From assembly GCA_965247115.1 (NCBI GenBank), contig CBDFGR010000002.1:1408001-1472000 (forward strand): a stretch of DNA of 64,000 nt, in the 5' to 3' direction. The position numbers were made by a program, and so were the translations under genes. Below the pieces are notes generated by a model that saw only the letters and a program-made list of their open reading frames with translations, was not told the origin of the DNA and searched no databases. This document shows, in pieces, positions 28,776 through 53,773 of this stretch; position 1 is the first letter of the stretch; every line of letters starts with the position of its first letter. Source of the DNA: Myxococcota bacterium. GTDB lineage: Bacteria; Myxococcota_A; UBA9160; SZUA-336.

Positions 28776-30709
28776 GGAGTCTCCTCGAGTCGCTCGATGC
28801 TCTCCTCGATCCGCAGCGCGAGGTCGAGTGCCCGGTAGCCGTCCTCCCCGCTCACGTCCGGCTTCGTGCGCTCCCGCACCGACGTCGCGAACGCGCGGTC
28901 CTGCGCGAGCAGCGCATCGCCGGAGTCGAGCTCGAGCTTCTCCGCGTGGATGCGCGGTGTCTCTCCTGACTCCGGGCGACCCTCACGGCGCACGATGGTG
29001 AGGCTGTTCTCGCCGAAGTCGATCGAGATGTAGGCGTCGCTCTGGAACAGGCGGACCTTGCGCAGCGACTCGAGCGAGACGCGGCTCGCTGTCAGGTTGA
29101 GGATGCACCCGTTTGCGAAGCGGATGCGCGCGTTCGCGATGTCCTCGCTGCTCGAGAGAACGGGCACGCCGACCGCCTCCACGCGCTCGACCTCGGCTCC
29201 AGCCAGGCTCGCGACGATGTCAAGATCGTGGATCATCACGTCCAGGATCACGCTCACGTCCGTCGCTCGATCAGGATACGGCCCGATCCGATGCGCCTCG
29301 ATGAAGCGCGGTCTGTTCAGCACCGGCCGGATGGCCGCGAAGGCGCGACTGAAGCGCTCGATGTGGCCAACCTGGAGCACCCGTCCGCGGCGCTCGGCCA
29401 GGTCGATCAGCTGCCTGGCGTCTTCGCGTGTCGTGGCGATGGGCTTCTCGACGAGCACGTCGAGCCCGGCCTCGAGCAGCTCCCGCGCGACCCGCGCGTG
29501 ATCCGTGGTCGGGACCGCTAGACAGGCTGCGTCCGCCAGCTCGCGAAGGCGCTCGGGCTCGCGCAGCGCCCGCACGTCGTACTTGCCCGCCACCTCGGCT
29601 GCTCGAGCGGGGTCTGCGTCACAGACGCAGGCGAGCCGGGCAACGCCCTCGCGCTCGAGCTGCGCGAGCTTCTCGGCGTGGAAGGCGCCCATGTGCCCAG
29701 CGCCGACCACGGCGATGCGCGGCAGTCCGCCTTGCGGGTGCCCGCCTTGCGGGACCCGGCGTCTACCTTGCGGGACCCGGCGCGCGAGCGGTCGCGCGCC
29801 ACCCGCTCTTCGTTCGGCTTGCGCCTCACTGCGCGCCGCGCCTTCGGCGCGGCTTGCGGGCGCCGTGCGTAGGGGCGCTTGCACCGTTGAGTCCGAGGGT
29901 AGGCCCACGAGGGTGATGCTCGCGTCGGCCAGCAGGGCGAGGGTTCGCTCGCGCTCGAGGACGAGCGTGCGGGCCGCCTCGAGGCCGATGGCCGCTACGC
30001 CGGCCTCTTTCGCGAGCGCGACGGTGCTCGGACCGATCACGGGGACGTCGAAGCGGAGGTCCTGACCGGGCTTCGCGACCTTGATGACGACGCTGCCCGG
30101 CCCTGCGAGCTCGGCCGCGCGCCGGACCATCGCATCCGTCCCCTCGGCCGCCTCGACGGCCACGACAGCCCCGGCTCGCACGACGACGCCCTGGCCCACG
30201 TCATGGCTGCCGAGACTCTTCGCCACGGTCAGGCCCAGCGCCAGGTCCTGCTCCTGCTCTGCCGAGAGCGGCCCGCCGACCAGGAGACCTTCGCGGACGA
30301 GCCGATCGCCCAAGTACTTGGTGGAGTCGACGACCGGCAGACCTTCGGACTCGAGCTCGTCAGCGATCGCGCGCAGCAGCACGTCGTCGCCGAGCGCCGG
30401 AAGCCGACGCAGCAGCGCGATGGCACGCGCGTCCGGGCGCAGTGAGGCCGGATCCTGAAGCAGCTCTCGCTTGGTGACCGCGCCTGCCAGGATGACCTCG
30501 CTCGCAGCCGCGTCCCTGAAGAAGCGGATCACGCGCTCGAGCTCTCCTGCGGCGAACCAGCCGAAGGCTCCCCGAGCACGCGACTCGATCGCAGGATCGG
30601 TGTTCCTCTCGATCGCCGCGATCGCCACGCCCAACCCGAGCTCCGAAGCGGCCTCGGCCACTTCGAACGGTAAGGGTCCGCTCCCTGCGATCAGCCCGAG
30701 CACCAACAT
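28772..30709 (-). CDS. lpxI: Fused ORF: LpxI (UDP-2,3-diacylglucosamine hydrolase), repeat-encoded linker, Gfo/Idh/MocA dehydrogenase (GnnA-like)
   Basis: N-terminal about 270 aa: GLIAGSG.LP, DVGQGVVV, AVEAAEGTD, K.AKPGQDLRFDVPVIG. C-terminal about 315 aa: IAVVGAGHMG, VEKPI, QVGHIERF, DVMIHDLD, TASRVS. No stop codon between the two domains. Confidence 0.85.
   Translation of the reverse strand: MLVLGLIAGSGPLPFEVAEAASELGLGVAIAAIERNTDPAIESRARGAFGWFAAGELERVIRFFRDAAASEVILAGAVTKRELLQDPASLRPDARAIALLRRLPALGDDVLLRAIADELESEGLPVVDSTKYLGDRLVREGLLVGGPLSAEQEQDLALGLTVAKSLGSHDVGQGVVVRAGAVVAVEAAEGTDAMVRRAAELAGPGSVVIKVAKPGQDLRFDVPVIGPSTVALAKEAGVAAIGLEAARTLVLERERTLALLADASITLVGLPSDSTVQAPLRTAPASRAEGAARSEAQAERRAGGARPLARRVPQGRRRVPQGGHPQGGLPRIAVVGAGHMGAFHAEKLAQLEREGVARLACVCDADPARAAEVAGKYDVRALREPERLRELADAACLAVPTTDHARVARELLEAGLDVLVEKPIATTREDARQLIDLAERRGRVLQVGHIERFSRAFAAIRPVLNRPRFIEAHRIGPYPDRATDVSVILDVMIHDLDIVASLAGAEVERVEAVGVPVLSSSEDIANARIRFANGCILNLTASRVSLESLRKVRLFQSDAYISIDFGENSLTIVRREGRPESGETPRIHAEKLELDSGDALLAQDRAFATSVRERTKPDVSGEDGYRALDLALRIEESIERLEETP
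29724..29860 (-). repeat. Three-hairpin REP-like repeat, copy A (inside the lpxI fusion ORF)
   Basis: Shares 50 consecutive identical bases with copy B and the 33-bp core GGGTGGCGCGCGACCGCTCGCGCGCCGGGTCCC with copies B and C. Confidence 0.9.
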
Positions 30710-30722
30710 GCTGGGGAGGAGC

Positions 30723-31505
30723 CTAACGAAACCGCGCGAAGCCGCGCTCGGATTTCTCGAGGAACGCGATCATGTGTTCGGCTTCGCGCGAATCGGGCAG
30801 TTTCTCGCGGACTGCTGCAAAGGCGTCGACGGGGTTCAGGTTCGAGCGAAAGATGATCCGATATGCCAGCTCCACGGCTTCAATCCGCTTCTCGTCGAAG
30901 CCGCGGCGTTCCATGTTGACCCGGTTCACGCCGATCACGCGTGCAGGATAGCCCTGTAGCTTGAGGAAGGGAGCCGCATCCATGACGAGCCCGGACATCG
31001 CACTCAGCATCGCGGATTCGCCGACGCGAAGAAACTGCCCCACGGCGCAGCGACCGGCGAGGTACGCGTGGTCCTCGACACGGATGTGTCCGGCGAGCAA
31101 GACCTCGTTCGTCATGATCACGTGGCTGCCGATGTGGCAGTCGTGAGCGATGTGGACGCCTATCATGATCAGGTTGTCGTCGCCGATGGTTGTCAGACCC
31201 CCGGCCACCTCCGTGCCGGGATGGATCGTGGCGTGCTCCCGGATGGTGTTGCGCGCGCCGATCACGAGACGCGTCGAGTCCCCCCGGTACTTCTGGTCTT
31301 GCGGGATCTCGCCGACAGACGCGAAGGAGTAGACCACCGTCTCCGGACCGATCTCGGTGTTTCCCGTGACGAGCGCGTGGGATCGCAGCTCGACCCGCGG
31401 CCCCAGCCGGACCTGCGGCCCGACCACGCAGTAGGGACCGACCGTCACGTCGGAGGCGAGCTCGGCCTTCGGATCGATGATGGCCGTTGGGTGAATTCCA
31501 CTCAT
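30723..31505 (-). CDS. lpxA: UDP-N-acetylglucosamine acyltransferase
   Basis: IHPTAIID, PQDQKY, IREHATIHPGT, HIAHDC, hexapeptide repeats, GVNRVN. Confidence 0.94.
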   Translation of the reverse strand: MSGIHPTAIIDPKAELASDVTVGPYCVVGPQVRLGPRVELRSHALVTGNTEIGPETVVYSFASVGEIPQDQKYRGDSTRLVIGARNTIREHATIHPGTEVAGGLTTIGDDNLIMIGVHIAHDCHIGSHVIMTNEVLLAGHIRVEDHAYLAGRCAVGQFLRVGESAMLSAMSGLVMDAAPFLKLQGYPARVIGVNRVNMERRGFDEKRIEAVELAYRIIFRSNLNPVDAFAAVREKLPDSREAEHMIAFLEKSERGFARFR

Positions 31506-31957
31506 CCGTCACTCTCCTCCCAGCGCACAAAGGACGCCAGCAAGGTGGTCTGGACCGCGAGCTCTCCCTCGACCTTGGCGAAGCCCTCGAAGCGAAACAT
31601 CGGTCCGCGCCGCCGCAGCACGCGCACATCCAGCTGCAGCACGTCCCCGGGGACGACCGGGCGTCGGAAGCGCGCGTTGTCGATCCCGACGAGTGCGGGC
31701 TCGAGACCTTCGGCGATCCCAGCCGTGCGCTTCGCCCACACGCACGCGGTCTGCGCGAGTGCCTCGAGGACGAGTACGCCGGGAAAGATCGGCCGGTCCG
31801 GGAAGTGTCCCTGGAGCACGGGCTCGTTCACGCTGATGAGCTTCTCGCCGAGGGCCGAGCCATCGTCCATCTCGAGGATCCGGTCGACGAGCAGGATCGG
31901 ATAGCGGTGCGGCAGGAGCTCGCGAATCTCCGCGATTCCGAGCAGCGCCTTAGACAC
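31502..31957 (-). CDS. fabZ: 3-hydroxyacyl-ACP dehydratase
   Basis: LPHRYPILLVDR, GHFP..PIFPGVL..EALAQ, RFRRPVVPGD. Confidence 0.95.
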   Translation of the reverse strand: MSKALLGIAEIRELLPHRYPILLVDRILEMDDGSALGEKLISVNEPVLQGHFPDRPIFPGVLVLEALAQTACVWAKRTAGIAEGLEPALVGIDNARFRRPVVPGDVLQLDVRVLRRRGPMFRFEGFAKVEGELAVQTTLLASFVRWEESDG

Positions 31958-31991
31958 GCCGGTCTCCCTTGCGCCCGCGGCGCACTCCGTT

Positions 31992-32525
31992 CTACTCCTT
32001 CCCGTTCTCGTTCAGGCGCTTGACAACGAGCTCCGTGATGTCGAGCGCGTCCTCGAGGTAGAGAACGCCGGGGCTGGAGCGATCGAGGATGAGCGAGAAG
32101 TCCCTGTCTTTTCCGATCTCGAGGACCGCCTCAGAGAATTCCTTGACCAGGGGCGCGAGCATCTTGCGCTCCTCGAGCTGCAGCTCCTCCTGAGCCTCCT
32201 GCACCTCACGCTCCAGGTCGCGGCCCCGCTTGACCAGGTCGAGCCGCCGCTCCTCGATGGCCTCGGGCGTGAGTACGTAGCGCTGCGCCTCGAGCTCTGC
32301 GCCCAGGCGTCGAAGGTCCTCTTGCTGTGGCTCCAGCTCTCCCTGGATCTTGGCCGCCAGCTCCGTCAGGAGCTTCTCTGCCTCGCGCCCGCGTATCGAG
32401 CTGATAATGGCCTGACGCTGATCGACGAACGCGATCTTCACGTCAGCCGCCCGGGCAAAGGAAGGTGCGAGCAAGCTCGCGAGCATGCCGAGCACGAACG
32501 CCGAGCCGAGTAATCGGGTCCCCAT
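31992..32525 (-). CDS. skp: OmpH/Skp outer-membrane chaperone
   Basis: Signal peptide, KIAFVD, helical core, DITELVVKRLN; follows bamA. Confidence 0.88.
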   Translation of the reverse strand: MGTRLLGSAFVLGMLASLLAPSFARAADVKIAFVDQRQAIISSIRGREAEKLLTELAAKIQGELEPQQEDLRRLGAELEAQRYVLTPEAIEERRLDLVKRGRDLEREVQEAQEELQLEERKMLAPLVKEFSEAVLEIGKDRDFSLILDRSSPGVLYLEDALDITELVVKRLNENGKE

Positions 32526-32580
32526 CTGATCCTCCTTCTATTCGCTGCCTTGACTATCCCTTGGGGGGATCGTCTGGGGT

Positions 32581-35244
32581 TCAGAGCTGACTGCCACCCA
32601 TAGAGAACTCGAATACCGCAGCGTCTTCGTCATCCAGCGCGTCGAGCGGGATCCCCAGAATGACCATGACCGGACCGAAGGGACTGAACCAGTTCACCCC
32701 GAAGCCCACCGAGAAGCGGAAGTCCGCGGGGTTCAAGGCCTCATTCTCTGCAAATGCGTTTCCCATGTCGAAAAAGGTGATCCCAGTAAGCCCCAGCTCC
32801 TCCGAGATCGGGAACTGCAGCTCCAGATTCAGCAGGAACATCTTATTCCCGCCGATCACATTCGCAAGGTCCAAGTCCACGAAGTCGTCGTTGTCATCGT
32901 CACTGAGGCTGTTGCAACCGCTCGGCAGGATACACACGCCAAGTCCGGCAGGATCGGCGGGATCCTGGGAGACGCGGAATCCATTGGTGTTGAAGGCCAC
33001 CTCTCCGGGCGCAAACAAGTTTCCGTTGCTGTCAATGGACCGCGCTAGCAGCTCGCTCCGGCGCGGACCCACGGAGCGTTGCTTGAAGCCCCGAACTTGG
33101 AAGGCGCCAAGCCCGCCAAGGTAGTAGCGCTCGGTGAGGTTGAGCTCGAGATCGTCGTCGATCCGGGTGAGCGCTTCCGCCTCGGGGCCGAAGGCGTCCG
33201 TGAACGCCCTGCAGCTCGTCGCCGGCCCCGCACCGTCCGGGTCCGTGAAGGTACACACAGGCAGGTCAAAGTCTCCAATGGAGTTAAACGGGATCACCCA
33301 GCCGGCCCGAGTATTGATGATGACCGTCGACTCGAAGGGGAGCCACTTCTTCCAGGGGAAGTACCAGGTCGAGCGCCCTTCGAAACGCACGAACTCGTTG
33401 AGGCCGCCTAGCCCGGCGTACTCGACGTTGGCGGAGAACACGTTTCCGTTCTTCGGGAAACGAATGTCGTCGCGCGTGTCCCGTGAAACCGAGAAGTTGA
33501 CAAGCGAGGTCGAGGTTGAGCCCTCGAAGTCCTCTCGTTGCAGCATCGACGCGGCCTGCAGTCTGCCGAAGCCCGTCACGTCTCGCGTAGTGTACGAATA
33601 GCCGGTCCCGAGGAAGGTGTCGCCCTCGTCGAGCGGATAGCTGATGTTTGACGAGAAACCGGTGACCTCCTGATCGAAATCGAGGAACTCCCGCTCGATG
33701 CTGGACAGGGTGCCGGACAGCGTCGCCGCGCTGCCGAACGCGTACGGCTCCAGGTAGCGCAGGAAGATGTTCTTCGTCCGGCTGCCGACGTCCGCGTTCG
33801 CGCTCAGGGCTCGCCCCTGACCGAAGAGGTTCTCCTGCGAGATCGAGCCGTTGACGAGGAAGCCGTCTGTGGACCCGACGCCGGCGCCGAAGCTGAAGCT
33901 CCCCGTCGGTCGCTCGACGACGTCGACGGCCAGTGCGAGCCGCCCGGGCGTATCGAGCGGCTGGGCGGCCATCGTGACCTCCTCGAAGAAGCCCAGCCTG
34001 CGCACACGCGCCTCGCTGCGGCGCACCGAGTCCGCGGCGTAGAGCTCGCCCTCGGACACGCCAAGCTCGCGGCGAACGACGTTGTCTCGGGTGCGCGTAT
34101 TACCCCGGACATCGATGCGATCGATGAAGAAGAGCGTCCCCTTCTCCACCTCGAAAGTGGAGGCGATCAAGAGCGCATCCGGGTCGACGTCAGTCCGGGG
34201 GGAGATGCTGGACTCGAAGAAGCCACGATCGGCGTAGTAGAAGCGCAGCCGCTCGACATCGTCGGAGAGCACACTGCGGCTGAAGACTTCGCCCTCCTTG
34301 GTCTCGACCAGGCCGAGCAAGAGCTCGAGATCCATGGTCTCATCACCAATGACGTCGATCGTCCCGTTGCGGAACTGCGGCCCCTCTGTGATGTCCACGC
34401 TCACGTACAGCCCGTCCGCCTTGACCTCCACACTCGGATCACCCACGTCGACGCGAATGTAGCCGTCGTCCATGTACAGGCGGGCCACGGCGTCCAGGTC
34501 CTGATAGAAGAGCGGCTCCGCGTACAGCCCGGACTTGTCCCAGAAGTGGGTGACCATCGACAGCCAGCCCCAGGGCTTTACCTGCATGACGCGCCGCAGG
34601 TCTCCATCGTCGAAAGCGACGTTGCCCTCGAAGGAGACCTCGCGCAGCGTGAGCTTGGCACCTTCGGCGATCTCGAAGTTCACGGATACGGCGCCCGGGG
34701 CGAGCTCCTCGATCTCGTACTCGACCTGCGCGAGGTAGTAGCCCTTGGTCTGGTAGAAGCCCTCCATGCGAGCCCGGTTCTCGATCAGGAGCGGGTAGTC
34801 GATCGTGGAGCCGACCGTGAGGGTCAGCTGATCCTGGAGATCGTCGCTGTCGACCTCCTCGTTTCCGATCACCGTGATCCGGCGAATGATCGGCTGCTCC
34901 TGCACCGCGTACGTGAGCGCCTGCCCACCTTCCACACGATCGGCCGAGACGTCGACGTCGCGGAAGAAGCCGAGCTCGTAGATGCGTCTCACGTCCTCCG
35001 CCACGCGTGTGAAGCTGAAGACCGTGTCCACCTGCGTGACCAGCACGGCGCGGATAGCGTTCGCGTCGATGCGCCGATTCCCCTCGATCCGGATCTCGCG
35101 CACCACGACGCCCTCGGTGGGAGTGCCCGCGTCCGCCTGCTGAGCTCTGGCCCCAAGCGACGTGCCGAGCACGAGCGCGCCTACCAGAGTCCCCACGGCG
35201 GCGCGGATCCAGGAACCATTGCTCGAGATTCTCCGGTACGTCAT
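32581..35244 (-). CDS. bamA: Outer membrane protein assembly factor BamA
   Basis: POTRA repeats (IEGNRRI, GNTRTRDNVVRRE), ERPTGSFSFGAG, VRGF motif, W.SPFGP; start at 35244 or 35265. Confidence 0.93.
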   Translation of the reverse strand: MTYRRISSNGSWIRAAVGTLVGALVLGTSLGARAQQADAGTPTEGVVVREIRIEGNRRIDANAIRAVLVTQVDTVFSFTRVAEDVRRIYELGFFRDVDVSADRVEGGQALTYAVQEQPIIRRITVIGNEEVDSDDLQDQLTLTVGSTIDYPLLIENRARMEGFYQTKGYYLAQVEYEIEELAPGAVSVNFEIAEGAKLTLREVSFEGNVAFDDGDLRRVMQVKPWGWLSMVTHFWDKSGLYAEPLFYQDLDAVARLYMDDGYIRVDVGDPSVEVKADGLYVSVDITEGPQFRNGTIDVIGDETMDLELLLGLVETKEGEVFSRSVLSDDVERLRFYYADRGFFESSISPRTDVDPDALLIASTFEVEKGTLFFIDRIDVRGNTRTRDNVVRRELGVSEGELYAADSVRRSEARVRRLGFFEEVTMAAQPLDTPGRLALAVDVVERPTGSFSFGAGVGSTDGFLVNGSISQENLFGQGRALSANADVGSRTKNIFLRYLEPYAFGSAATLSGTLSSIEREFLDFDQEVTGFSSNISYPLDEGDTFLGTGYSYTTRDVTGFGRLQAASMLQREDFEGSTSTSLVNFSVSRDTRDDIRFPKNGNVFSANVEYAGLGGLNEFVRFEGRSTWYFPWKKWLPFESTVIINTRAGWVIPFNSIGDFDLPVCTFTDPDGAGPATSCRAFTDAFGPEAEALTRIDDDLELNLTERYYLGGLGAFQVRGFKQRSVGPRRSELLARSIDSNGNLFAPGEVAFNTNGFRVSQDPADPAGLGVCILPSGCNSLSDDDNDDFVDLDLANVIGGNKMFLLNLELQFPISEELGLTGITFFDMGNAFAENEALNPADFRFSVGFGVNWFSPFGPVMVILGIPLDALDDEDAAVFEFSMGGSQL

Positions 35245-35335
35245 ATCCCTCGATCTCGTCGCCAAGTAAATTTACGGTGAACGCGACACCTTACCCTGAG
35301 CGTGCCGGCGCGGTCTACAGAATCCCTCCGCCCGC

Positions 35336-36007
35336 TCAGGACTCCAGCCGGCCCTCCGTCAGGTAGCACTTCTTCGCGAGTCGGTTGGCCAGCTTCTCGT
35401 TGTGGGTGACGAGAATCAGGGCCGTCTCGATCTCGGCGTTCAGCTTGAGAAAGAGGTCCTCCACGTCCTCGGCCGTGTGCGGATCCAGGTTCCCGGTCGG
35501 CTCGTCCGCCAGGATGACCGGGGGCTCGAGCACCATCGAGCGCGCCACCGCCACGCGCTGTCGCTCGCCGCCGGAGAGCTTGCCAGGCCCATGCCGGCGG
35601 CGGTCTGCGAGTCCCACGACCTCGAGCATCTCCCCGGCACGCGCTCGCGCCTTGCGCTTGCTCCAGCCCGCCAGGAGGCACGGCATCATGACGTTCTCCT
35701 CGGCATCGAACTCGGGGAGGAGATGGTGCAGCTGGAACACGAAGCCCAGGGTCTGATTGCGAAACTGCGCGATCTCTGCGCTTGGAAGCCCGTAGATATC
35801 CACACCGCTGTACAGGACGCGACCCGCGGTCGGCCGCTCGAGGCCTCCGAGGATGTGCAGGAGCGTCGACTTGCCGGCCCCAGAGACCCCGAGAACCGCG
35901 ATGGAATCGCCTCGGCCGATGCGCAGATCGATCCCGTTCAGGATCTCGAGCCTCGCCCCCGCAAGCTCGAAGTGCTTGACCACTCCCTCGGCGCAGAGGT
36001 CACTCAT
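35336..36007 (-). CDS. lolD: Lipoprotein-releasing ABC ATPase LolD
   Basis: GVSGAGKST, FVFQLHHLLPEF, LSGGERQR, ADEPTGNLD. Confidence 0.9.
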   Translation of the reverse strand: MSDLCAEGVVKHFELAGARLEILNGIDLRIGRGDSIAVLGVSGAGKSTLLHILGGLERPTAGRVLYSGVDIYGLPSAEIAQFRNQTLGFVFQLHHLLPEFDAEENVMMPCLLAGWSKRKARARAGEMLEVVGLADRRRHGPGKLSGGERQRVAVARSMVLEPPVILADEPTGNLDPHTAEDVEDLFLKLNAEIETALILVTHNEKLANRLAKKCYLTEGRLES

Positions 36008-39249: not shown

Positions 39250-40372
39250 CTAGCCCTCCGCCGCCACGAGGAGGTACGCACGAATCATCGAATCAATCCC
39301 GCCATCCAGGACTCTGTTCGCATCGCCAATCTCGACACCGGTGCGGTGGTCCTTCACCCGCTGGGAAGGATGTAGCGTGTACGAACGGATCTGGCTGCCG
39401 AAGTCGATCTTCTTCTTCTCTCCCTCCAGCCGCTCCTTCTCGGCCTCGCGCTCCAGGCGCGCCCGCTCGTACAGGCGCGCCCGCAGGACCTTCATGGCCG
39501 AGGCTTTGTTCTTGTGCTGGCTGCGCTCGTTCTGGCACTGGACGACCACGCCCGTTGGAAGATGAGTGATGCGCACTGCGGAGTCCGTTCGGTTGACGTG
39601 CTGACCACCCGCGCCGCCGGCCCGGTACGTATCGATCCGCAGGTCCTTCTCGTCGATGTTGACCTCCACGTCGCTGCCGATATCGGGCACCATCGAGAAC
39701 GATGCGAAGCTCGTCTGGCGACGCTTCTGCGCGTCGAAGGGCGAGATGCGAACGAGGCGGTGGATGCCGATCTCGCTCCGGAGGTGGCCGTAAACGTAGT
39801 CGCCTTCGATCGTGAACGTGACGCCCTTGATACCGGCCTCTTCCCCTTCCTGAATGTCGAGGATGTCCGACTTGAAGCCCCGCTCCTCGGACCAGCGCAG
39901 GTACATGCGCAGCAGCATCTCGGCCCAATCACAGGAGTCCGTGCCGCCGGCCCCGGCGTTGATCGAGACGATGGCCGAGTTGTGATCGTGCTCGCCAGAG
40001 AGCAGGCGCACGAGCTCCGCCTCCGCCAGACGTTCGCTGAGCTTCTCGACGCTCTCGGCCGACTCGGCAATGGTCTCGAGATCACCTTCCTCGACGGCGA
40101 GCTCGAGCATCACCGAGGCATCCGAGAGGAGGGTCTCGGTCTCGTTGAAAAAGTCGAGCTCCCGGGCAAGCTCGCTCTTCTCGCGCAGGGTCCGCTCTGC
40201 CTGCTCTCGGTCGTTCCACAGCTCCGGGTCTGCGGTGATCCGCTCTAGCTCGTCGAGTCGGGTGCGCTTCGTCGCGAGGTCAAAGATGCCTCCGCAGCTC
40301 CGCGGTGCGCTCGCCGAGAGCTCGTAGCTCGTCCTGGATCTCCTTCGCTCGTGAGCTCGCGTCTTCTGACAA
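39250..40372 (-). CDS. prfB: Peptide chain release factor 2 with programmed +1 frameshift
   Basis: SD GGAGGAG and TTG at 40372, 30 codons, then GGAGG-CAT-CTT-TGA-C shift site. The +1 frame contains SPF and GGQ motifs. Confidence 0.95.
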
Positions 40373-41906
40373 CCCAGACTCCTCCGATCCCGATCAGCAA
40401 TCCCCAGCAGGCCCAGACCACCCAGTCGCCCAGGCGCGTGTACAGCGTGGCTCCAGCGCGCGGGCGGGGTAGCACCGTCACGACCGCCCTGCGCTCGAAG
40501 ATTGGCGTCTCCTGCAGGACAATGCCACCCGCATCCACCACTCCGCTCACTCCGGTGTTCGCGGCACGCAACAGCGGCACGCCGTGCTCCGCGGAGCGCG
40601 TGGCCGCGATCGCCAGGAACTGGTGCGGCGCGCTGGTCCGCCCGTACCAGGCATCGTTCGTGAGGTTCAGCAGGACGCGCGCGCCATCGCGCACGGCCTC
40701 TCGAACCAGGTTTGGGTAGATCACCTCGTAACAGATGAGTGCGGCGGGGGCCGTACTCGTCGCCCAGGCAGCAGAGGTCTGCAGAACGCGGGGCGCCCCG
40801 CCCGGCGAGATGTCCTCCTGCGCCAGGCCCGTCGCCACACCCCGGAGAAAGCCCAGCAGGCTGCGCAAGGGGACGTACTCGCCGAACGGGACCAGGTGCG
40901 TCTTGTCGTAGCGATCGACCAGCTCTCCCGAGGAGCTGACCACGAACACACTGTTGAAGTAGCGTGGGCTGCTTTGGCCGAGAGGCCACTCGAATCCAAC
41001 ACCCCCCAGCACGACCGTCGCCGCGGTCTCGCGTGCCAGCCTCTGCACCGCCGCCCTGGCTTCGGGCTGCTCGTCGAGTAGGATGGGCACCGCGGACTCT
41101 GGCCACAGGATCAGGTCGACCCCACTCGAGTCGGGCTGCGACAGCTCGATGTGGACGCCAAAGTTCTGCATTGCGAGCTCCGGGTCCCACTTCTGCCCTT
41201 GCGGGATGTTTCCCTGGACGATCTGGACACGCAGAGGGTCGTCGGTCGCGGGCTGCGCCGCAGCCTCGAACAGGCGCCAGGAAAAGCCGCTGGCATGCAC
41301 GATGGCTACCACGATGATCGCCGCCCGAAAGTGCCGGAGACTCAGCAGCGAGGCGACGAGTGCGAGGAGGAAGCTCAGACCCCAGATCCCACCCAGCCCG
41401 GCCAGCTCGAGCACGGGCCCATCGCGGTGGACGGCATAGCCCAGGTAGGCCCAGGGGAACCCCCCGAACAGGTCGAAGCTGCGCAGGTGCTCCGCCGTCA
41501 CCCAGGCAGCAGGCAGCACGAACAACGCGGCGCGACCAGCGGTCGGCAAGAGCCAGCTCGTGAGCGCTCCCGCCAGCCCCGCGTGCAGTCCCATGTAGGC
41601 GGCGAGGCCGAGCGTGGCGAGGACTCCGACCAACGCGTTGGCGTGACCGTGGACGACGACCACGACGAAGATCCAGAACAGGATCACGCCGTAGCCCAGC
41701 GTGGCGAAGCCCGTGGTCCAGAGGAACGCGCGCCGCGGCGACAGACGCTCGAGCAACAGAGCGAGGGGCAACAAGGCCACCCAGCCGGCCAGCATCCCGA
41801 CGTCGAAGCGCAGCTCTCCTACTCGAAACGGAAAGGAGGCCGCGAGCAGAACCGCGAAGGCGACCCCCAGGCCCGGGCGCCCTAGCCGAAGCGCGACAGC
41901 TCCCAA
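40245..41906 (-). CDS. lnt: Apolipoprotein N-acyltransferase
   Basis: GFPW..LGY, VQGNI, WPESA, YDKTHLVPFGEYVP, ICYE, TNDAW, RAANTGVS; start approximate. Confidence 0.93.
   Translation of the reverse strand: MGAVALRLGRPGLGVAFAVLLAASFPFRVGELRFDVGMLAGWVALLPLALLLERLSPRRAFLWTTGFATLGYGVILFWIFVVVVVHGHANALVGVLATLGLAAYMGLHAGLAGALTSWLLPTAGRAALFVLPAAWVTAEHLRSFDLFGGFPWAYLGYAVHRDGPVLELAGLGGIWGLSFLLALVASLLSLRHFRAAIIVVAIVHASGFSWRLFEAAAQPATDDPLRVQIVQGNIPQGQKWDPELAMQNFGVHIELSQPDSSGVDLILWPESAVPILLDEQPEARAAVQRLARETAATVVLGGVGFEWPLGQSSPRYFNSVFVVSSSGELVDRYDKTHLVPFGEYVPLRSLLGFLRGVATGLAQEDISPGGAPRVLQTSAAWATSTAPAALICYEVIYPNLVREAVRDGARVLLNLTNDAWYGRTSAPHQFLAIAATRSAEHGVPLLRAANTGVSGVVDAGGIVLQETPIFERRAVVTVLPRPRAGATLYTRLGDWVVWACWGLLIGIGGVWVVRRRELTSEGDPGRATSSRRAHRGAAEASLTSRRSAPDSTS
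40279..40293 (-). promoter_or_regulatory. prfB +1 programmed frameshift signal
   Basis: Internal SD GGAGG, 3 nt, then CTT TGA C. Confidence 0.93.
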
Positions 41907-42322
41907 CGCAGGTGGTCCTCGAGCTCTCGCATGCGCCGCCCGTCGGCCGCGTTCTGGTGATCCATCCCCACCAGGTGGAGTATCCCGTGGATCGCGAGGT
42001 CCCGCACCTCGGAGTCGATCGAGACACGGCGAGCGGCGGCTTGACGCCCAGCCGTCTCGACGGAGAGCACGACATCTCCGAGGCACTCGCCGCGGAAGCG
42101 CGCCCCCGGTCCCTCCAGGAGCGAGAAGGCCAGGACGTCGGTCGGCTCCGCGTCGCGCCCGAAGCGGCCCGCCATCTCGGCAATCGCTGCGTCGCTCACG
42201 AGCGTGACCGAGAGCTCAGCGTCCGAGTACCCCAAGGCGCCTAATACCGCCTTCAGTCTCCTCCGGAGGGCGCTCCGGTCGATCGATCTGCCCAGGCTCG
42301 AGCCGTTCAGCCAGGCCTTCAT
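41882..42322 (-). CDS. ybeY: rRNA maturation RNase YbeY
   Basis: [25 protein letters not shown]. Confidence 0.92.
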
Positions 42323-45616: not shown

Positions 45617-45669
45617 AGCTGCCCGAATCAGGCCGCACAGTACTACTCCGGCCCTGCGTCCCTCACTGC

Positions 45670-46755: not shown

Positions 46756-48581
46756 TTCGAGACCCTGAGCTTGTTGAGCCGCTGGAATGACTCCCAGAGA
46801 CTGAGTCCGTAGAGCGGCAGCAGGAGAAGGGCGCTGAACACGCTCGGGAGTGTGGACGCCAGATCTCCAATCTCCCACGGTCCCGGCAATCTCGTGGACA
46901 CCAGGAGCAGGGCAAGGGCGACGCCGACCCCCGCAATGCGCAGGCACCCCGTCACGGCGCGGCCTTCGAAAAGCCCGGGCAGACCCGGCACGACGATGCC
47001 CGCTCCGACCAGGCCGACCCGAACACGCCGTCTGCGTGCACGGTCGAGATCGAGCTGGGCCCGCCGCAGGCGCGGGTCGCTGGGACCGGCCGGAGTACGC
47101 AGCCGCTGACACGTCACGCAGGTATCCGTCGCCACGCCGGGAGAACAGGCCTGGCAGATGACCTTGCTGCAGCCTCTGCAGCGACTGATGCGTTTGCGAC
47201 GCGCGACTGCGCCCGCTGCGCCCAGCGCGGGCAGGAGCAACCAGCTCCAGGCTGGCGCCCGCCGTCCGAGCGCCCAGCTCCGCACGTGGCGCGCCAGGTT
47301 GTCACCGTGTGGTGTCGGCGCAAGCGCTTGCTCGAGGAAGTACGTGAGCGGGATGTGTGGCTGGATCAGGTAGGAGTGGAGCGTCGTCCCGCCGCGTTTC
47401 GTGTGCTCACGAATCAGTGCGGGGTCGCTCTCACGGGCGGCCACAAAGAGCGCCGAGTGGTCTTCCAGTCGCAGCGCCCGACCGTACGCCTGAGACAGGT
47501 TGTAGAGAACGGCAGCCGACTCCTCCGCCGCCCGGGCATCCTCGAACCACTCGACGGACTCCTTCAGGTCCCCCCAGGCGAGATGGACGCTCCCCAGAAT
47601 GTTGAACGCCTGGGAGCGCAGGCCGGCGGGAGCGGACGCGGGAACCTCGTCCAGGAGCGCCTTGGTAGCCTGGAGATCCCCGCGACGCTTGAGCTGTGCG
47701 GCGAGCCCGAGGCGCGCCAGTAGCTGCCCATCCCGCGCCGTCGCGAGCTCCAGACGCTCCTCGTCACCGGGCAACCCCTGTCCCCGGTCCACGCGCCAGG
47801 CAGCCAGAAGCGTATCGGCGTGCCCCTGCACTGCGGAGAGGCGCGCCCAGTTGTCGAGGAGGGGTCCCGCCATGAGACCGAGGATTGCCATCCAGATGGC
47901 CACGCCGAAGGACTCGCGGGTCGGCAGCCGCAGCGTCGCCAGGAGCCCCGCCACGGCGAGGATGATCAGGGGACCCATGCCGAACAGGGGCAGCAGGGCC
48001 AGGACCCCGATGCCCAGTAGCATGCCGGGCCAGCTGGGCGGGTCGATGGAATCGGTGAAGTGGCCGAGCTCGTGTCCGTGAAGCGCGAGCGTACGTACAT
48101 AGCCGACGGACACGACGAGGGTCGTGGCCAGCAGTACTCCCAGTCCCAGCGCAACGCCAAGGGTCGACAGCAGCCAGAGCATCCCTGGAAAGCTGTGGAG
48201 CAGCGAGAAGGCCGCCATCACACCGGCCCAGCGATCGCGGCTTTGGCGGGCGGCCTCGAACAGGATTCCGGGGGTGGTGGGAGCGAGTCGCAGCGCCTTC
48301 TCGACGAAGTTGGGCCGGGTGCCATTCTTCGCCGCGTCCAGGGCCGCCCAGGCCAGGACCGGCAGGTCGCGAAAGCCGCGCTCCCGTAGGAGCACCTCGG
48401 CCTGCTCGAGCCTCACGCCAAAGGGAAGCTCGGCCACGAGTTCAGGCTCGGGAAGCGGGGCGGTGGGGACCTCTAGCGGGTCGGCGCGGTCGAGCTCCGC
48501 GCGCGCGCTACCGCACACGAGCAGCGTGGCCAGCAGAGCCACACCAAAGACGGATCCCCGCACGCTCCTCGCAGGACGCAC
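46752..48581 (-). CDS. TPR-containing multi-pass membrane protein with a Cys cluster
   Basis: Signal peptide, TM helices, TPR-like AFNILG...A..YNLSQAY, CxxCxxxxCxxC...CxxC; ATGA overlap with the DUF4388 gene. Confidence 0.7.
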   Translation of the reverse strand: MRPARSVRGSVFGVALLATLLVCGSARAELDRADPLEVPTAPLPEPELVAELPFGVRLEQAEVLLRERGFRDLPVLAWAALDAAKNGTRPNFVEKALRLAPTTPGILFEAARQSRDRWAGVMAAFSLLHSFPGMLWLLSTLGVALGLGVLLATTLVVSVGYVRTLALHGHELGHFTDSIDPPSWPGMLLGIGVLALLPLFGMGPLIILAVAGLLATLRLPTRESFGVAIWMAILGLMAGPLLDNWARLSAVQGHADTLLAAWRVDRGQGLPGDEERLELATARDGQLLARLGLAAQLKRRGDLQATKALLDEVPASAPAGLRSQAFNILGSVHLAWGDLKESVEWFEDARAAEESAAVLYNLSQAYGRALRLEDHSALFVAARESDPALIREHTKRGGTTLHSYLIQPHIPLTYFLEQALAPTPHGDNLARHVRSWALGRRAPAWSWLLLPALGAAGAVARRKRISRCRGCSKVICQACSPGVATDTCVTCQRLRTPAGPSDPRLRRAQLDLDRARRRRVRVGLVGAGIVVPGLPGLFEGRAVTGCLRIAGVGVALALLLVSTRLPGPWEIGDLASTLPSVFSALLLLPLYGLSLWESFQRLNKLRVSK

Positions 48582-48650
48582 TCGCTCCCCTCAGCCGGCG
48601 GCAGCCGGCCCCTGGTCTTAGTTCGGACAGGCTCAGCGGCCACTGAAGAC

Positions 48651-50333
48651 CTATCGTCCGGCCGAAAGGTCCCGCCCGCGGAAGAGATTCCGCAGTAGCT
48701 GCAGCTCGTTGCTGCGGAGAAGCTGCAGCACAAGCCCGTAGCCCAGCAGGCCCAGGGCCACGTGGAGAGCGAGGACTGCGAGGGCGGCCAGGGAGGCCTC
48801 CGACCCTACGGGGAGGCTCGCGTCGAGGCCTCGCAGCAGGGCGACCATCGCTCCTGCGGCGACGAGGATCTTCCCCCACCCGAGCAGACTCCCACTTTCG
48901 AGCTGGCTGCCGTAGCGCCGGCGCGCCGAGGCAACCACGTAGGCGCAGTTCGCCGTCGCCGCGATCGTGCTGGCCAGCGCCAGACCCACGAAGCCCAGGT
49001 CGGCCACCACTGCGCTGTGCTGGGCCGCAAGTAGCCAGCTCGGGAGCTGTCCGCCTGGCAACGGGCCGATCAGACACAGGGAGGCTAGCGCGTTCACCAA
49101 CAGGCTCACGAGAGCACCGCGTGCCGCCGTCGCGGTGTTCTCGTGCGCAAAGCAGAGATTCGCGTAGATCCGGGTGAGCGCGATTGGCACCAGGCCGAAG
49201 GCGTAGAAGAACAGGGCGGTGGAGGAGGCCTCGATGGCGGGCCGCCCGAAGACCGAGCTGTCGAGCCCGAAGAGCACCGCGAAGATCGGCTCGGAGAGCA
49301 GCACGAGTCCCGCGGAAGCCGGCAGTGCTAGCGCGAGCAGCGTTCCGAGCGTCGTCGAGAAGGTCCTGCGGAGCCCCTCGCGGTCGCCGGTGGAGATCAG
49401 CCTGGAGAAGGAAGGCAGGCTCGCGGCCCCGAGCGCGAACACGAACACGCCAAGCGGCAGCTCGAGGAGGCGCGACGCGTAGTAGAGATACGAGACCGCC
49501 CCATCGCCGAGAAAGGAGGCGAGAAAGCGCGAGAGGAGCAGGTTGAGCTGGAACACCGAGGCGCCAAGCATGGCCGGAAGCATGAGCTGTCCGAGTCGCC
49601 GCACTGCCGGGTGGCGGATGGCCCAGAGCACACGCGGAGCCATGGCCCGCGCCCGCAATGGGGGCAGCAGCACGAGCACCTGAAGGACCCCCGCCAGCAG
49701 CACGGCCACCGCCAGCCCCTCAATGGGCTGATCCAGCAGCGCGACGCTCAGGAAGGCGGCAGCGATCAAGCACAGGTTCAGCAGGACCGGAGCGAGGGCC
49801 GGGACCAGAAAATGCCCGAGGCTGTTCAGCGCACCCATGGCCACGGAGAGTAGGATCATGGCCAGGATGTAGGGAAAGCAGAGCCTCGTCAGGGTCGCCG
49901 TGAGCTCGCGCTTGCCCTCTGTCAGCTCGAAGCCCGGTGCGAACACGCCCACGAGCGGATCGGCTGCAAGGATGCCGGCGAGCGCGATCGCCACGCCGAC
50001 GGCAAAGGCGAGCGTCCAGATGGTGCTGAAGACGTCGCGCGCCGCTTCTCGAGAGCGCGACAGCCAGCTCGAGAACACCGGGACGAACGAGATCGTGAGC
50101 GACCCCTCCCCGACCAGCCTGCGCAGCAGGTTGGGGAGCATGAAGGCGACGAAGAACGCGTCCGTGGCGGCGGCGGGGAACAGGTTGGCTACCACCACGT
50201 CTCGCACCAGGCCGAGCACGCGGCTCGCCAGGGTCGCCCCACCCACGACTCCGGCCGAGCGGACGATTTCGGCTCCGTCCGTTGACACCTCGGGCGGACC
50301 GGGGTACCTACCGTCCCGCTCGGAGGAACTCAT
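48651..50333 (-). CDS. murJ: Lipid II flippase MurJ (MviN)
   Basis: SRVLGLVRD, DAFFVAFMLPNLLRRL..EG, LYYASRLLELPLG. Start is ATG 50333 or GTG 50288. Confidence 0.93.
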   Translation of the reverse strand: MSSSERDGRYPGPPEVSTDGAEIVRSAGVVGGATLASRVLGLVRDVVVANLFPAAATDAFFVAFMLPNLLRRLVGEGSLTISFVPVFSSWLSRSREAARDVFSTIWTLAFAVGVAIALAGILAADPLVGVFAPGFELTEGKRELTATLTRLCFPYILAMILLSVAMGALNSLGHFLVPALAPVLLNLCLIAAAFLSVALLDQPIEGLAVAVLLAGVLQVLVLLPPLRARAMAPRVLWAIRHPAVRRLGQLMLPAMLGASVFQLNLLLSRFLASFLGDGAVSYLYYASRLLELPLGVFVFALGAASLPSFSRLISTGDREGLRRTFSTTLGTLLALALPASAGLVLLSEPIFAVLFGLDSSVFGRPAIEASSTALFFYAFGLVPIALTRIYANLCFAHENTATAARGALVSLLVNALASLCLIGPLPGGQLPSWLLAAQHSAVVADLGFVGLALASTIAATANCAYVVASARRRYGSQLESGSLLGWGKILVAAGAMVALLRGLDASLPVGSEASLAALAVLALHVALGLLGYGLVLQLLRSNELQLLRNLFRGRDLSAGR

Positions 50334-50592
50334 GGCCCAACACGCTTCCGCCAAGAAGCGCCATCGCCAGTCGCTGAAGCGATCCGCCCGCAACCGGCAT
50401 TATCGGTCAACGGTGCGCTCTGCAGTGCGCAGGGCGCGGCGGGCAGCCGTCGAGAGCTCCGAGGACGCTGTGCGCTACGCCCACGAGGCCGAGCAGCTGC
50501 TGCGCCGGGCCCTGACAAAGGGCTCCATGCACCAGCGAACCGTGTCGCGCACCGTCTCGCGGCTACAGAAGCTGCTGAAGGGCAACGGATAG
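50332..50592 (+). CDS. rpsT: 30S ribosomal protein S20
   Basis: MAQHASAKKRHRQS..R..RN...RS.VR, KG.MH..T.SR.VSRL; SD GGAGGA. Confidence 0.92.
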   Translation: MAQHASAKKRHRQSLKRSARNRHYRSTVRSAVRRARRAAVESSEDAVRYAHEAEQLLRRALTKGSMHQRTVSRTVSRLQKLLKGNG

Positions 50593-50634
50593 CCTCCGCC
50601 AGGCTGGCCTCCCCGGCCAGGCTCACCTCCCCGG

Positions 50635-51621
50635 TCAGGCGCAGACCGCAAGCACCAGACGCTCGATGGCCAGCTGCGCGGGCAGCGGCGTGGCCCCTTT
50701 GAGGGCCTCGTCGGTTCTGCGCACCGCGTCGAGGCACGCGCGCAGGCGCGGCAGATCGAAGCGTCGGGCCTGCTCGACCAGCTTCTTTGCGGCGTAGGGG
50801 TGGACGCCCAGGCGCTGCTGCACCTCGCGCGTCTCCAGCGGACGGCACTCCCGCGCGCGCAGCAGACGCCGGAAGTGGTTCGCAAGCGCCCCCAGCACCA
50901 CGAGGGGCACGTCCCCCTGGTGTATCAGCTGGTTCGTGAGCCTGAGCGAGGCCGCCAGCTGTCGCGCACCGATCGCGTCGGTCAGCTCGTAGAGCGCGCG
51001 CGGTCGCAAATCTCCCGTGACGGCGGCCACGTCCTCGCCTCTGACCTCCCCACGCTCCCCGACGAACAGGCATACCTTGTCGAGCTCCATCGCCAGGCGA
51101 TCCAGGTTTGGACCCACCCTTTCCAGCAGCGTAGAAGCGACACCGCTGCCTGCGCGCTTCCCACGGCTCTTCAGCTGGGCCGCGATCCAGCTGCGCAGCT
51201 CCGCTGGCCGGCTCGGGCCCTTGCACTCGCGCAGCTCCCCCACCTTTGCCACGAGCTTGACCCATTTCTGGCGCCTGTCCACGCGCTCGGCTTCCAGGAC
51301 CAGACACGTTGTGGCCACGGGGCTCTCCAGGTAGTCCGGAAGCGGCCCCTCGAGGAACTTCGTCGCTCTTCTGGCGGCCAGGCCTCGCACCAGCACGAGG
51401 CGACCGGGCGCCATGACTGGGACCGTTCGCGCCGCCACCAGGATCTCGCCCGGGTCTGTGCCAGCGGCCGCCAGATCGAAGCGGTCCTCGTTGAAGTCGG
51501 CCGGGCCGCTCGCAAGCACCCGCTCGCGCAGCTCGAGCAGCGCGGCGTCGCGCAGCATGGCCTCAGGACCCACCAGGAGCGCAACCGGAGGATGGGCCGG
51601 CTCAGTACGCGAAGAGGTCAT
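50635..51621 (-). CDS. holA: DNA polymerase III delta subunit
   Basis: LLVGPE, DFNE, A.T.P.MA..RLV, MELDKV.LF, D..LKG; next to lptE and rpsT. Confidence 0.88.
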   Translation of the reverse strand: MTSSRTEPAHPPVALLVGPEAMLRDAALLELRERVLASGPADFNEDRFDLAAAGTDPGEILVAARTVPVMAPGRLVLVRGLAARRATKFLEGPLPDYLESPVATTCLVLEAERVDRRQKWVKLVAKVGELRECKGPSRPAELRSWIAAQLKSRGKRAGSGVASTLLERVGPNLDRLAMELDKVCLFVGERGEVRGEDVAAVTGDLRPRALYELTDAIGARQLAASLRLTNQLIHQGDVPLVVLGALANHFRRLLRARECRPLETREVQQRLGVHPYAAKKLVEQARRFDLPRLRACLDAVRRTDEALKGATPLPAQLAIERLVLAVCA

Positions 51622-52129
51622 TGTGGATGTCCTCGGCGATCAAAGTAGCGACCCGGAGCATGGCCATCTGCTTGTTGCTCTTGTACACGAGCGGGTCTGC
51701 ACTGGAGAGAAAGTTCTGGCGCGCGGACAGCCCGGAGCCCTGCCAGACGACCTCTCCGGTGTCGACGCGCAGCACCCTCGCGTTGACCGTTACCTCGAGA
51801 GAGTCCTCGACGGAGATCGCCACGGACGAGAACGAGCTGGGGCGCACGTACACCCGCTGAATAGTGCCGCGCAGAACCACCTGGGAGCCGCCGGACTCAC
51901 CAGGCGGAACGGCGCGGAGCCGGCCCCCGCGCATGAACTCCTCCATGAGCGCCTCGCCAAGCACCAGCTCGAGACCCGGCTCGTCGGTCGGGTTCTCGAA
52001 CATGCGGATCTCGAGCTGCCGGACGTCATCGCCGAGCACCAGCGTCCTGCTGACCGGGCGGTAGCCGCAGCCGAGCACGAGCGCAACAGCGAGCACGACA
52101 CCAGCGCGTGTCAGCGACGAGTGGAACAC
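51602..52129 (-). CDS. lptE: LPS assembly lipoprotein LptE family
   Basis: Lipobox LVLG-CGY, F.N.T.EPGLE; upstream of holA. Confidence 0.8.
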   Translation of the reverse strand: MFHSSLTRAGVVLAVALVLGCGYRPVSRTLVLGDDVRQLEIRMFENPTDEPGLELVLGEALMEEFMRGGRLRAVPPGESGGSQVVLRGTIQRVYVRPSSFSSVAISVEDSLEVTVNARVLRVDTGEVVWQGSGLSARQNFLSSADPLVYKSNKQMAMLRVATLIAEDIHNDLFAY

Positions 52130-52130
52130 T

Positions 52131-53486
52131 TCAGAAATACCGCAGCTGGACCATCATCTGTCGTTCGAGTCGCGGAATGGCCGTCTTGAGCGCAAAGATC
52201 ACGACGTGGTCGCCCGCCTCGATCACGTCATCACCAAAGGGGATCCGCACCTCGTCGCCCCGAACGATGGCGCCCACGATCGCGTCCGCGAAATCCGCTT
52301 CTCGGAGCGGTTTGCCGACCAGCTCCGAGGTCTCGAGCGCGATGATCTCCAACGCCTCGGCTCCGGACTCTCCCACGCTTGTGACCGAGACGACCTTGCC
52401 CTTGCGGATGAAGTGGAGGATCGCCGACACCGCAGCGAGGTGCGGGCTGACGACCGCGTCGATCCCGATGTGCGAGACGAGCCCGGCATAGGAGAGCTTG
52501 TTCACCAGCGCCATCACGCGGCCCGCTCCCGAGCGCTTGGCGAGTAGAGAGGCGAGGATGTTGTCTTCCTCGTCGCGCGTCAGCGCGAGGAAGGCGTCCG
52601 TCGTCTCGATGCTCTCCTCTCGCAGCAGCTCCGGATCCGTACCGGAGCCCTGCAGGATGACGCTGCGCTCGAGTCTCTCCGCGAGGTACTTGCAGCGCTG
52701 CGGGTCCGACTCGATGATCTTCGGCACGATGTCTTCGGCTTCGAGCATGCGCGCAAGGTAGTAGCCGATGTTTCCACCGCCGCTGATCACGATACGGCGC
52801 GCCTCGATGTCAGGCTTGCCAAGCAGCTCCGCGAGCCTGCCGAGTGCAGCCGGGCTGCCAGCGACGTACAGCTGATCGCCCAGACGAATCCGCGTCTTCC
52901 CCTCAGGGATGAGCATCTGGCCGTCGCGCAGGATCGCCACGACGTTGCAGTCGATCCCGAGACGCGTCTTGAAGTCGTAGAGCGCGGCGTCCACAACCTC
53001 GCTCTCCGTATCCAGGGCGAACGCGACCACCTGGACGCGCCCCCCGGCGAACTCGAGCACGCGCACCGCGCCCGGGACGCGCAGCGTCTTCAAGACGATC
53101 TGCGCGGCTTCTTCCTCGGGATTGATGTTCAGGTCCAGCGGGTCGTCGCCGAAAATGGCGGGCACCGCCTGCGCCAGGTCCGGATCGCGCACGCGCGCGA
53201 TCTTTGTCGGAATCACCGTCTCGTGCGAGGCCACCATGCACGAGACGATGTTGATCTCGTCCGAGTTCGTGACGGCAATGATCATCTCGGCGTCTTCCAG
53301 GCCGGCCGAGCGCAACACCGAGGGGTTCGAGCCGTTTCCATGCACAACCTGGACGTCGGCGACTTCACGCAGCTGCGGCACGCGCTCGAGGTCGCTCTCG
53401 ATGATGACGACATCCTTGCGCTCTGACGACAGGCGGCGCGCGAGCGTAGCCCCGATATCCCCGCCCCCGATGATCAGGATGCTCAC
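52131..53486 (-). CDS. trkA: Trk system potassium uptake protein TrkA
   Basis: Two RCK-N/RCK-C pairs (IIGGGDIG, ISGGGNIG). The real start is GTG 53486; the ORF-track extension lies in repeat copy C. Confidence 0.93.
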   Translation of the reverse strand: MSILIIGGGDIGATLARRLSSERKDVVIIESDLERVPQLREVADVQVVHGNGSNPSVLRSAGLEDAEMIIAVTNSDEINIVSCMVASHETVIPTKIARVRDPDLAQAVPAIFGDDPLDLNINPEEEAAQIVLKTLRVPGAVRVLEFAGGRVQVVAFALDTESEVVDAALYDFKTRLGIDCNVVAILRDGQMLIPEGKTRIRLGDQLYVAGSPAALGRLAELLGKPDIEARRIVISGGGNIGYYLARMLEAEDIVPKIIESDPQRCKYLAERLERSVILQGSGTDPELLREESIETTDAFLALTRDEEDNILASLLAKRSGAGRVMALVNKLSYAGLVSHIGIDAVVSPHLAAVSAILHFIRKGKVVSVTSVGESGAEALEIIALETSELVGKPLREADFADAIVGAIVRGDEVRIPFGDDVIEAGDHVVIFALKTAIPRLERQMMVQLRYF

Positions 53487-53493
53487 GGGCCGG

Positions 53494-53499
53494 ATTATA
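53494..53499 (-). promoter_or_regulatory. Perfect -10 box 7 nt before the trkA start (leaderless type)
   Basis: Minus strand TATAAT-CCGGCCC-GTG with no SD. Confidence 0.65.
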
Positions 53500-53604
53500 G
53501 CGCGAGTCTTATGGGACCCGGCGCGCGAGCGGTCGCGCGCCACCCACCTTCGCTCAGGGCTATGCCCTTCGCTGCGCGCGCCGCGTACCGCGGCGCTTGC
53601 AAGG
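53500..53604 (-). repeat. Three-hairpin REP-like repeat, copy C
   Basis: Identical 33-bp core; hairpins GCGCCGCG-GTA-CGCGGCGC and AGGGC-ATA-GCCCT upstream of it. Confidence 0.87.
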
Positions 53605-53639
53605 TTGCCGGTGCGTCAGGAAATCAACGCGTGGGTGGA

Positions 53640-53773
53640 GCCGCAAACCGCGCCGTAGGCGCGGTGCGCAGTGAGCCGTAGGCGAACGAAGAGCGGGTGG
53701 CGCGCGACCGCTCGCGCGCCGGGTCCCGCAAGACACGCGCCGGGTCCCGCAAGGCAGGCCCGCAAGGCAGACT
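53640..53773 (+). repeat. Three-hairpin REP-like repeat, copy B (inverted relative to copy C)
   Basis: Colinear with copy A over its whole length, including three downstream CCCGCAAG units. Confidence 0.9.

Follow-up and report, generated by a model that had tools for sequence, protein, structure and literature searches.

The window analysed here is a stretch of 64,000 nucleotides (nt) from a Myxococcota bacterium (G000:C2:1408001-1472000, where G000 is the source genome of 5.17 Mb), and its gene content includes genes for lipid A and fatty acids. It carries three copies, called A, B and C, of a dispersed repeat that is predicted to fold into a series of hairpins, and this repeat, its relatives in the class and the way in which it may spread are the subject of this work. 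The copies and their surroundings are as follows.

29724–29860, minus strand: copy A, as read from the sequence
29808–29857, minus strand: head of copy A (GCAAG, hairpin 1 with a GAA loop, GCGCAGTGA, hairpin 2, GAACGAAG), the module conserved across the class
29770–29806, minus strand: hairpin 3 of copy A, an outer GCGGG/CCCGC stem with the "33-base-pair (bp) core", the lineage-specific module
29724–29769, minus strand: tail of copy A, made of partial 3'-end repeats; relatives differ in length here by whole codons
28772–30709, minus strand: open reading frame (ORF) of 645 amino acids (aa), with LpxI (aa 4–267), a repeat-encoded linker and a Gfo/Idh/MocA oxidoreductase (from aa 331)
53500–53604, minus strand: copy C, as read from the sequence
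53511–53600, minus strand: parsed extent of copy C (head 53548–53600, hairpin 3 53511–53547)
53601–53642, no strand: spacer within the 5'-to-5' pair C/B
53640–53773, plus strand: copy B, as read from the sequence
53643–53729, plus strand: parsed extent of copy B (head 53643–53691, hairpin 3 53693–53729)
53730–53775, plus strand: tail of copy B, flush on the TGA stop (53773–53775) of an opposite-strand zinc-ribbon gene (53773–54810)

Each copy runs in the order GCAAG, hairpin 1, GCGCAGYGA, hairpin 2, GARCGNAG and hairpin 3, and copies A and B each end in three CCCGCAAG units. The three copies, their hairpins and loops, and the tail units of A and B all read as an earlier, sequence-only reading of this DNA had described them. 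Its layout of the hairpins also stands, but it was incomplete: hairpin 2 runs further out through a tandem GA/GA and then a covarying GY/RC pair, and hairpin 3 has an additional outer stem, GYGGG/CCCRC. The 33-bp core that was said to be identical is indeed so in A, B and C, but not beyond one subtype, and its inner stem varies freely. At G000:C1:178774-178899 and at other sites, the repeat takes a longer form in which hairpin 3 contains a further, branched hairpin. The 3' side of copy C is directed at the called start of trkA, at 53486.

The repeat is far from confined to the window. The 33-nt core alone has 28 exact matches in the source genome and 64 with at most 4 mismatches. A profile built from 164 near-full-length copies (cut-off E<=1e-3) found 195 matches in 152 clusters, and none in the reversed genome that served as the control. 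Within the window, a covariance model recovered precisely copies A, B and C at 72-89 bits, the next-best match scoring 20 bits. Most clusters (116 of 152) are single copies and 20 hold an inverted pair, which does not fit an inverted pair of the REPIN type as the mobile unit. Among neighbours no more than 600 bp apart, 27 are in tandem, 22 are 5'-to-5' and none is 3'-to-3'.

What is conserved across the class is not the 33-bp core. It is a head of about 50 nt, made of GCAAG, hairpin 1 and a GNA-capped hairpin that stands on tandem G·A pairs. In a survey of 191 genomes of the class, a pattern match of this head gave at least 20 matches in 62 of them (range 0-645, patchy within families), compared with 0-5 matches in the reversed control. 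When the pattern took in the start of hairpin 3, matches were left in 16 of the 191. The covariance model matched 15 of 151 genomes of the phylum, and these matches retain the head but have either no third part or an unrelated one; the 33-bp core is therefore a lineage-specific module, and the 3' module appears to have been swapped between lineages. The repeat ends in TAAG or TCAG in other lineages. A wider collection scan gave 80 loci, mostly from metagenome-assembled genomes (MAGs) of Myxococcota or Deltaproteobacteria; a match in Planctomycetia (L040) was rejected as a member of the family. At one locus (L283, about 1500-2240; G030:C1:1192408-1193143), three copies lie among tRNA genes in an apparent rRNA operon spacer.

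The head is predicted to fold on one strand of DNA. Tandem Y-GA-R pairs are of the sheared type. The folded strands of the three window copies have DNA folding z-scores of -2.6, -3.3 and -3.4. A parser fitted 141 of the 164 near-full-length copies of the source genome, and in these the outer pair of hairpin 2 is C-G in 130, T-A in 10 and broken in 1, while the outer pair of hairpin 3 is T-A in 114, C-G in 20, T·G in 7 and C·A in none. The GNAG near hairpin 3 is GGAG in 83, GAAG in 50 and GTAG in 8, and the loop of hairpin 2 is a GNA in 88 and the reverse complement of one in 4. Because G·T mismatches exceed A·C mismatches (29:5) and GNA loops favour one strand, it is one strand that folds. In an alignment of 32 copies from several genomes, hand-picked and with a relatedness that inflates the pair counts, 93.7% of cells are paired and 11 of 24 pairs show double changes. 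None of 500 shuffles was as high, and slid controls were 29-48% paired. The earlier claim of a dispersed, structure-selected and non-coding repeat is thus borne out, by the 195 matches, by the covariation and by the strand-specific hairpins of a DNA type.

Using our own simple gene model, 145 of the 152 clusters are intergenic and 7 lie in ORFs. Gaps between convergent genes hold 56 of the 145 intergenic clusters, compared with 714 of all 4338 gene pairs. When a 3' end faces an opposite-strand stop codon within about 75 nt, it finishes no more than 16 nt away, stop included, in 69 of 82 cases, where uniform intergenic insertion would give about 17%. Copy B, whose 3' end is flush on an opposite-strand stop, is an example. 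No such peak is seen at the 5' ends of the clusters in the source genome. Head-only copies behave in a similar way, and in one genome (G197) 9 of 15 matches, read by eye, finish no more than 10 nt from a stop. A preference for stop codons is also described for repetitive extragenic palindromic (REP) sequences (PMC3733652).

One could suppose from this position that the repeat owes its retention mainly to a role in RNA, as a stabiliser of 3' ends, a terminator or a translation signal. This would account for the excess of copies at the ends of genes and in convergent gaps, and REPs have been proposed to act in such ways (PMC3733652). However, what appears in the mRNA of a flush gene is the reverse strand, with neither the GNA loops nor the G·A pairs, and in unidirectional gaps the folded strand shows no sense bias (28 sense, 23 antisense). 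GNA triloops, as in GCGNAGC mini-hairpins, are far more stable in DNA than in RNA according to PMC13037366, and a role in RNA would leave the dispersal unexplained. A search of Rfam gave no match to a curated family, with none at the gathering score in the window and none at E<=0.1 in three repeat-bearing loci. The structured-RNA role that had been put forward is thus not supported, and we consider it very improbable.

The junctions are precise on one side only. CT stands at the junction in 55 of the 69 flush 3' ends, a modest excess over the expected 65%, compared with 48 of 161 at 5' junctions, and cleavage at CT or CA has been reported for REP-associated tyrosine transposases (RAYTs) in PMC8266576. 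Around 240 clusters, flanking direct repeats are in no excess over the control, so there is no general duplication of the target. The exceptional duplications are one of 24 bp, direct, in which a copy is flanked by a duplicated gene 3' end (L064, about 1000-1140), and one of 51 bp, inverted (L078). Local duplications in the 5' flanks occur in 7 non-TIR cases out of 304 (control, 3 of 312), TIR standing for terminal inverted repeat. The ends of the repeat are not inverted repeats and duplication is not above the control, which sets it apart from miniature inverted-repeat transposable elements. The GC skew of the source genome is too weak for a reading of replichore bias.

A fixed end opposite a variable one brings rolling-circle transposition to mind. 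Elements of the IS91 type have one fixed end, a variable other end, tandem arrays and CAAG at their junctions. The repeat has a fixed 3' and a variable 5' end, and CAAG stands at both ends of the subtype of the source genome and at an empty dnaE2 site. A truncated transposase remnant of the IS91 type (Y2) lies at L134, 1500-2270. It is the only Y2 gene found in the source genome and has no repeat in its flanks, and the TAAG or TCAG ends of the other lineages do not fit either; a non-autonomous derivative of such an element is hardly credible as an explanation.

The few copies inside genes keep their frames open. The seven ORF clusters of the source genome lie in purD, a gene for an AddA-like helicase-nuclease, dnaE2, imuB, cheW, a C-terminal overlap and, as copy A, the lpxI fusion. 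In-frame insertion resembling that of Rickettsia palindromic elements (RPE), at sites empty in orthologues, is found in purD, dnaE2, imuB, the AddA-like gene and at the lpxI junction. The purD copy consists of three tandem units at a site empty in five of five orthologues, and the dnaE2 copy is filled in G000 and its relative G002 and empty in six loci. The comparison of filled and empty orthologous sites that the sequence-only reading had proposed is thereby available for lpxI, purD, dnaE2 and imuB. Of 31 C-terminal segments of ImuB, 8 have an in-frame repeat. These repeats differ in site or orientation in no fewer than five ways, of which two are antisense, and imuB was thus struck independently at least five times.

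Copy A appears to be a clear case of a repeat that forms the linker of a two-domain fusion. In four relatives (G001, G010, G019 and G023), lpxI and the oxidoreductase gene are separate, and the TGA of lpxI overlaps the next start codon. In G000 and G002, the repeat is present at this junction, there is no stop and the two genes form a single frame. The variation at copy A is read from proteins and the two genomes; G000 and G002 differ there by three indels (+21, -6 and -12 nt). The frame is kept in six close fusion proteins of 632-653 aa, which come from a search that took in proteins of 354-1129 aa and that unfused alleles would escape. Four more distant aligned fusions of LpxI with Gfo/Idh/MocA (P0007, P0008, P0009 and P0011) are without the repeat.

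The AddA-like gene, dnaE2 and imuB hold three of the six internal in-frame copies of the source genome within 13 kb, and a bias of REPs toward repair genes and dnaE2 is noted in PMC3733652. Such a gathering at SOS mutasome genes fits a spread without any dedicated transposase, in which mini-hairpins resistant to single-stranded DNA-binding protein (SSB) signal priming or stalling on single-stranded DNA (ssDNA), and host replication, repair or template switching copies them into gaps close by and into exposed loci, the SOS mutasome genes among them. Mini-hairpins occur at primase sites and bind SSB poorly (PMC13037366). The ragged ends, the iterated partial 3' tails, the local duplications of 5' flanks and the high copy numbers in genomes with no Y1 match at all would follow from it as well. 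On the other hand, the precision of the 3' junction and the spread over megabases are better explained by an enzyme, and unrelated repeats have hot spots in mutasome genes too, which points to tolerance and not to a cause (PMC3733652). MAGs may miss genes, and enzymes may be lost after an expansion. There is also no similarity to plasmid or phage signals: for single-strand initiation signals, no meaningful match was found in 72,556 plasmids, and four viral pattern matches were not members of the family. We regard spread by the host machinery alone as unlikely.

If an enzyme moves the repeat, the window itself offers one candidate.

13429–14118, plus strand: gene for a Y1/HUH protein of about 230 aa, at most a candidate mobiliser; the closest repeat is 15.7 kb away

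This gene has 16 copies in the source genome, one of them in the window, and the family is found in 44 of 190 genomes of the class, often in several copies and below the NCBIfam cut-off for RAYT. It is present in 26 of 62 high-copy genomes compared with 19 of 129 low-copy ones, a count that ignores kinship although kin are not independent. In two sets of genomes of our own choice, PF01797 is matched in 14 of the 24 with high copy numbers and in 5 of the 26 with no copies. As the genomes are MAGs, a missing Y1 means one not found. The only lead that resembles a REPtron is genome G017, where a head repeat precedes each of the four copies of the gene by 230-330 nt.

A second family of Y1 genes travels with inverted repeats of its own.

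L001, 1004-1977 (G000:C3:2177079-2178046): gene resembling those of TIR-associated tyrosine transposases (TIRYT), with a 40-nt inverted repeat on either side

L001 matches the TIRYT motif given in PMC3733652 and PMC6006769. Its TIRs recur in about 60 clusters in the genome (63 counted), many of them mini-elements of about 150 nt, and one could think that TIRYT moves the repeat as a passenger of such a mini-element. For 38 of the 63 TIR clusters, a repeat is no more than 300 bp away, in most cases 44-45 nt, and a common adapter joins the two at the 5' end of the repeat. However, the majority of the 152 repeat clusters lack a TIR. Where orthologous sites are compared, the TIR element cuts into existing repeat copies and so arrived later; in G002, for example, a TIR-type mini-element in the C/B spacer cuts into hairpin 1 of copy B. 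The TIRYT genes of G000 and genus g30 are flanked by TIRs and not by the repeat, and genus g10 has no Y1 match. A passenger origin is, on these grounds, improbable.

Other neighbours gave no mobiliser. Within 900 nt of 236 clusters, the only genes that recur are common enzyme families and a transposase between pairs, which we take from its motif to be IS5-like. At L080 (2365-3950), such an element sits between two inverted repeat copies, with similar neighbours at five loci. No repeat-linked nuclease was seen by eye among 93 small flanking proteins. GIY-YIG gave one hit per genome in five of five genomes, in ORFs of 647-1337 aa read as UvrC, and was rejected. No link to the repeat was seen among the multi-copy gene families of the source genome, including a group of 28 members, presumably DUF222/HNH-like. 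Phage-like genes occur in the same genome as several sets of 3-6 paralogues, which suggests that some prophage regions are related (G000:C3:3087-8911, 804292-807209, 1178073-1216906 and others). In the window, a long open frame at 39250-42183 on the minus strand (called start 40110) has release-factor domains only in its last part, and we take it to be possibly a frameshifted prfB.

On balance, we favour a REP-like element that is moved as ssDNA by a trans-acting nuclease, probably of the HUH type, that reads the head. The repeat would be copied as ssDNA, the putative recognition signal being the head, where C(GNA)G loops go together with sheared G·A pairs in tandem, and the nuclease, whose chemistry we infer, would join the copy to new sites. 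The 3' junction would be made by strand transfer at targets that start with T (often C|T), such as opposite-strand stop codons would supply. Purifying selection would then remove most genic insertions and leave those in flexible linkers; one of these may have erased the lpxI stop and so fused the gene with the next.

Several observations weigh against this explanation. No cognate enzyme was found. No Y1 gene of the source genome lies within 2.8 kb of a repeat copy and 10 of the 24 high-copy genomes have no match to PF01797, so the HUH partner proposed from the sequence is not supported. Genus g10, with up to 168 copies, has no PF01797 in 12 genomes and no NF047646 in five at E<=0.1, and G010, with 454 matches and 100% complete, has no PF01797 match. 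Among 140 Y1 loci, head matches flank the four G017 genes and, weakly, three elsewhere, and 4 of 30 further Y1 loci have matches, about the background density. Copies that flank a candidate RAYT gene are thus not seen in G000 or G002 and, among 170 Y1 loci, are seen in G017 alone (4 of 4). There is no fixed GT[AG]G tag either. The GTGG that was read, with the core stem, as the mark of a REP is paired and covaries, or is absent; its GG is paired in all 32 aligned copies, and upstream of it covariation turns GTGGG into GCGGG. As copies share ancestry, the pair counts do not stand for separate events, and in some lineages the loop of hairpin 3 is a GNA on the opposite strand, which does not suit a single folded strand. 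The stop at the junction is TAG in 32 of 69 cases, which is no significant enrichment (p=0.17). Lastly, in contigs of close strains (four runs, one 20-kb stretch), no joint that skips a copy was found among the best-supported joints listed.

The repeat is high-copy, palindromic, mostly extragenic and restricted to lineages, as REPs tagged with GTAG are. It works like a REP yet fails the tests of the REP tag and of the RAYT; the earlier REP reading thus holds for these general traits but not for an unpaired GT[AG]G tag or a flanked RAYT. A broader reading, which we think rather unlikely, makes it a class-wide superfamily of ssDNA repeats that is defined by the tandem-G·A/GNA head rather than by a REP tag and that reaches hundreds of copies even where no Y1 nuclease is detectable. 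It would spread by host priming and repair or by an unknown enzyme class, target stops and write protein linkers, as in the five or more imuB insertions and the lipid A operon fusion.

Known systems share parts of this behaviour. In the literature searched, which took in few subscription papers and the main texts only of PMC3733652 and PMC6006769 (their supplements list further repeats and atypical structures), no description of this repeat family was found. GTAG-tagged REPs, BIMEs and REPINs, with their RAYT (TnpA_REP) Y1 enzymes, are likewise short, palindromic, high-copy, patchy among lineages and mostly intergenic (PMC3733652, PMC6006769, PMC8266576). These REPs also occur as singles, dimers and tandem groups, end at stops, have CT-rich junctions and lie in frame in genes for DNA repair and error-prone polymerases. 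In contrast, this repeat is about 90 nt long with two or three hairpins, has the tandem-G·A/GNA head and no unpaired GT[AG]G, and has no flanked RAYT except for the lead in one genome. REPs tagged with CGTC behave as REPs with no associated transposase gene found (PMC3733652), but this repeat lacks the CGTC tag and has several hairpins and a modular 3' part. The "double-foot" REPs of TnpA_Y1 subclass 2.4 (PMC6006769) are resembled by hairpin 3 of the main subtype of the source genome, bounded by GTGG and CCAC, although here covariation turns the foot into GCGG/CCGC and members elsewhere in the class can do without the hairpin. TIRYT/TIR (PMC3733652; subclass 2.1 of PMC6006769) is coupled in this genome to the repeat's 5' side, but it is distinct from the repeat and has a gene and inverted repeats of its own. 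RPE insert in frame into unrelated proteins and add 27-96 residues (PMC3733652), whereas genic copies are few here (7 of 152 clusters) and one of them fused two genes.

Because each behaviour has a precedent in REPs and RPE, the gain is a testable system and not a new principle, unless the mobiliser proves to be new. The family bears on two questions, the means by which REP-like repeats spread and the reason for their accumulation in genes for repair and error-prone polymerases. For these, it offers a natural series, with copy numbers from 0 to 645 across one class, genomes with and without Y1, a sharp 3' junction and parallel insertions in the linker of imuB.

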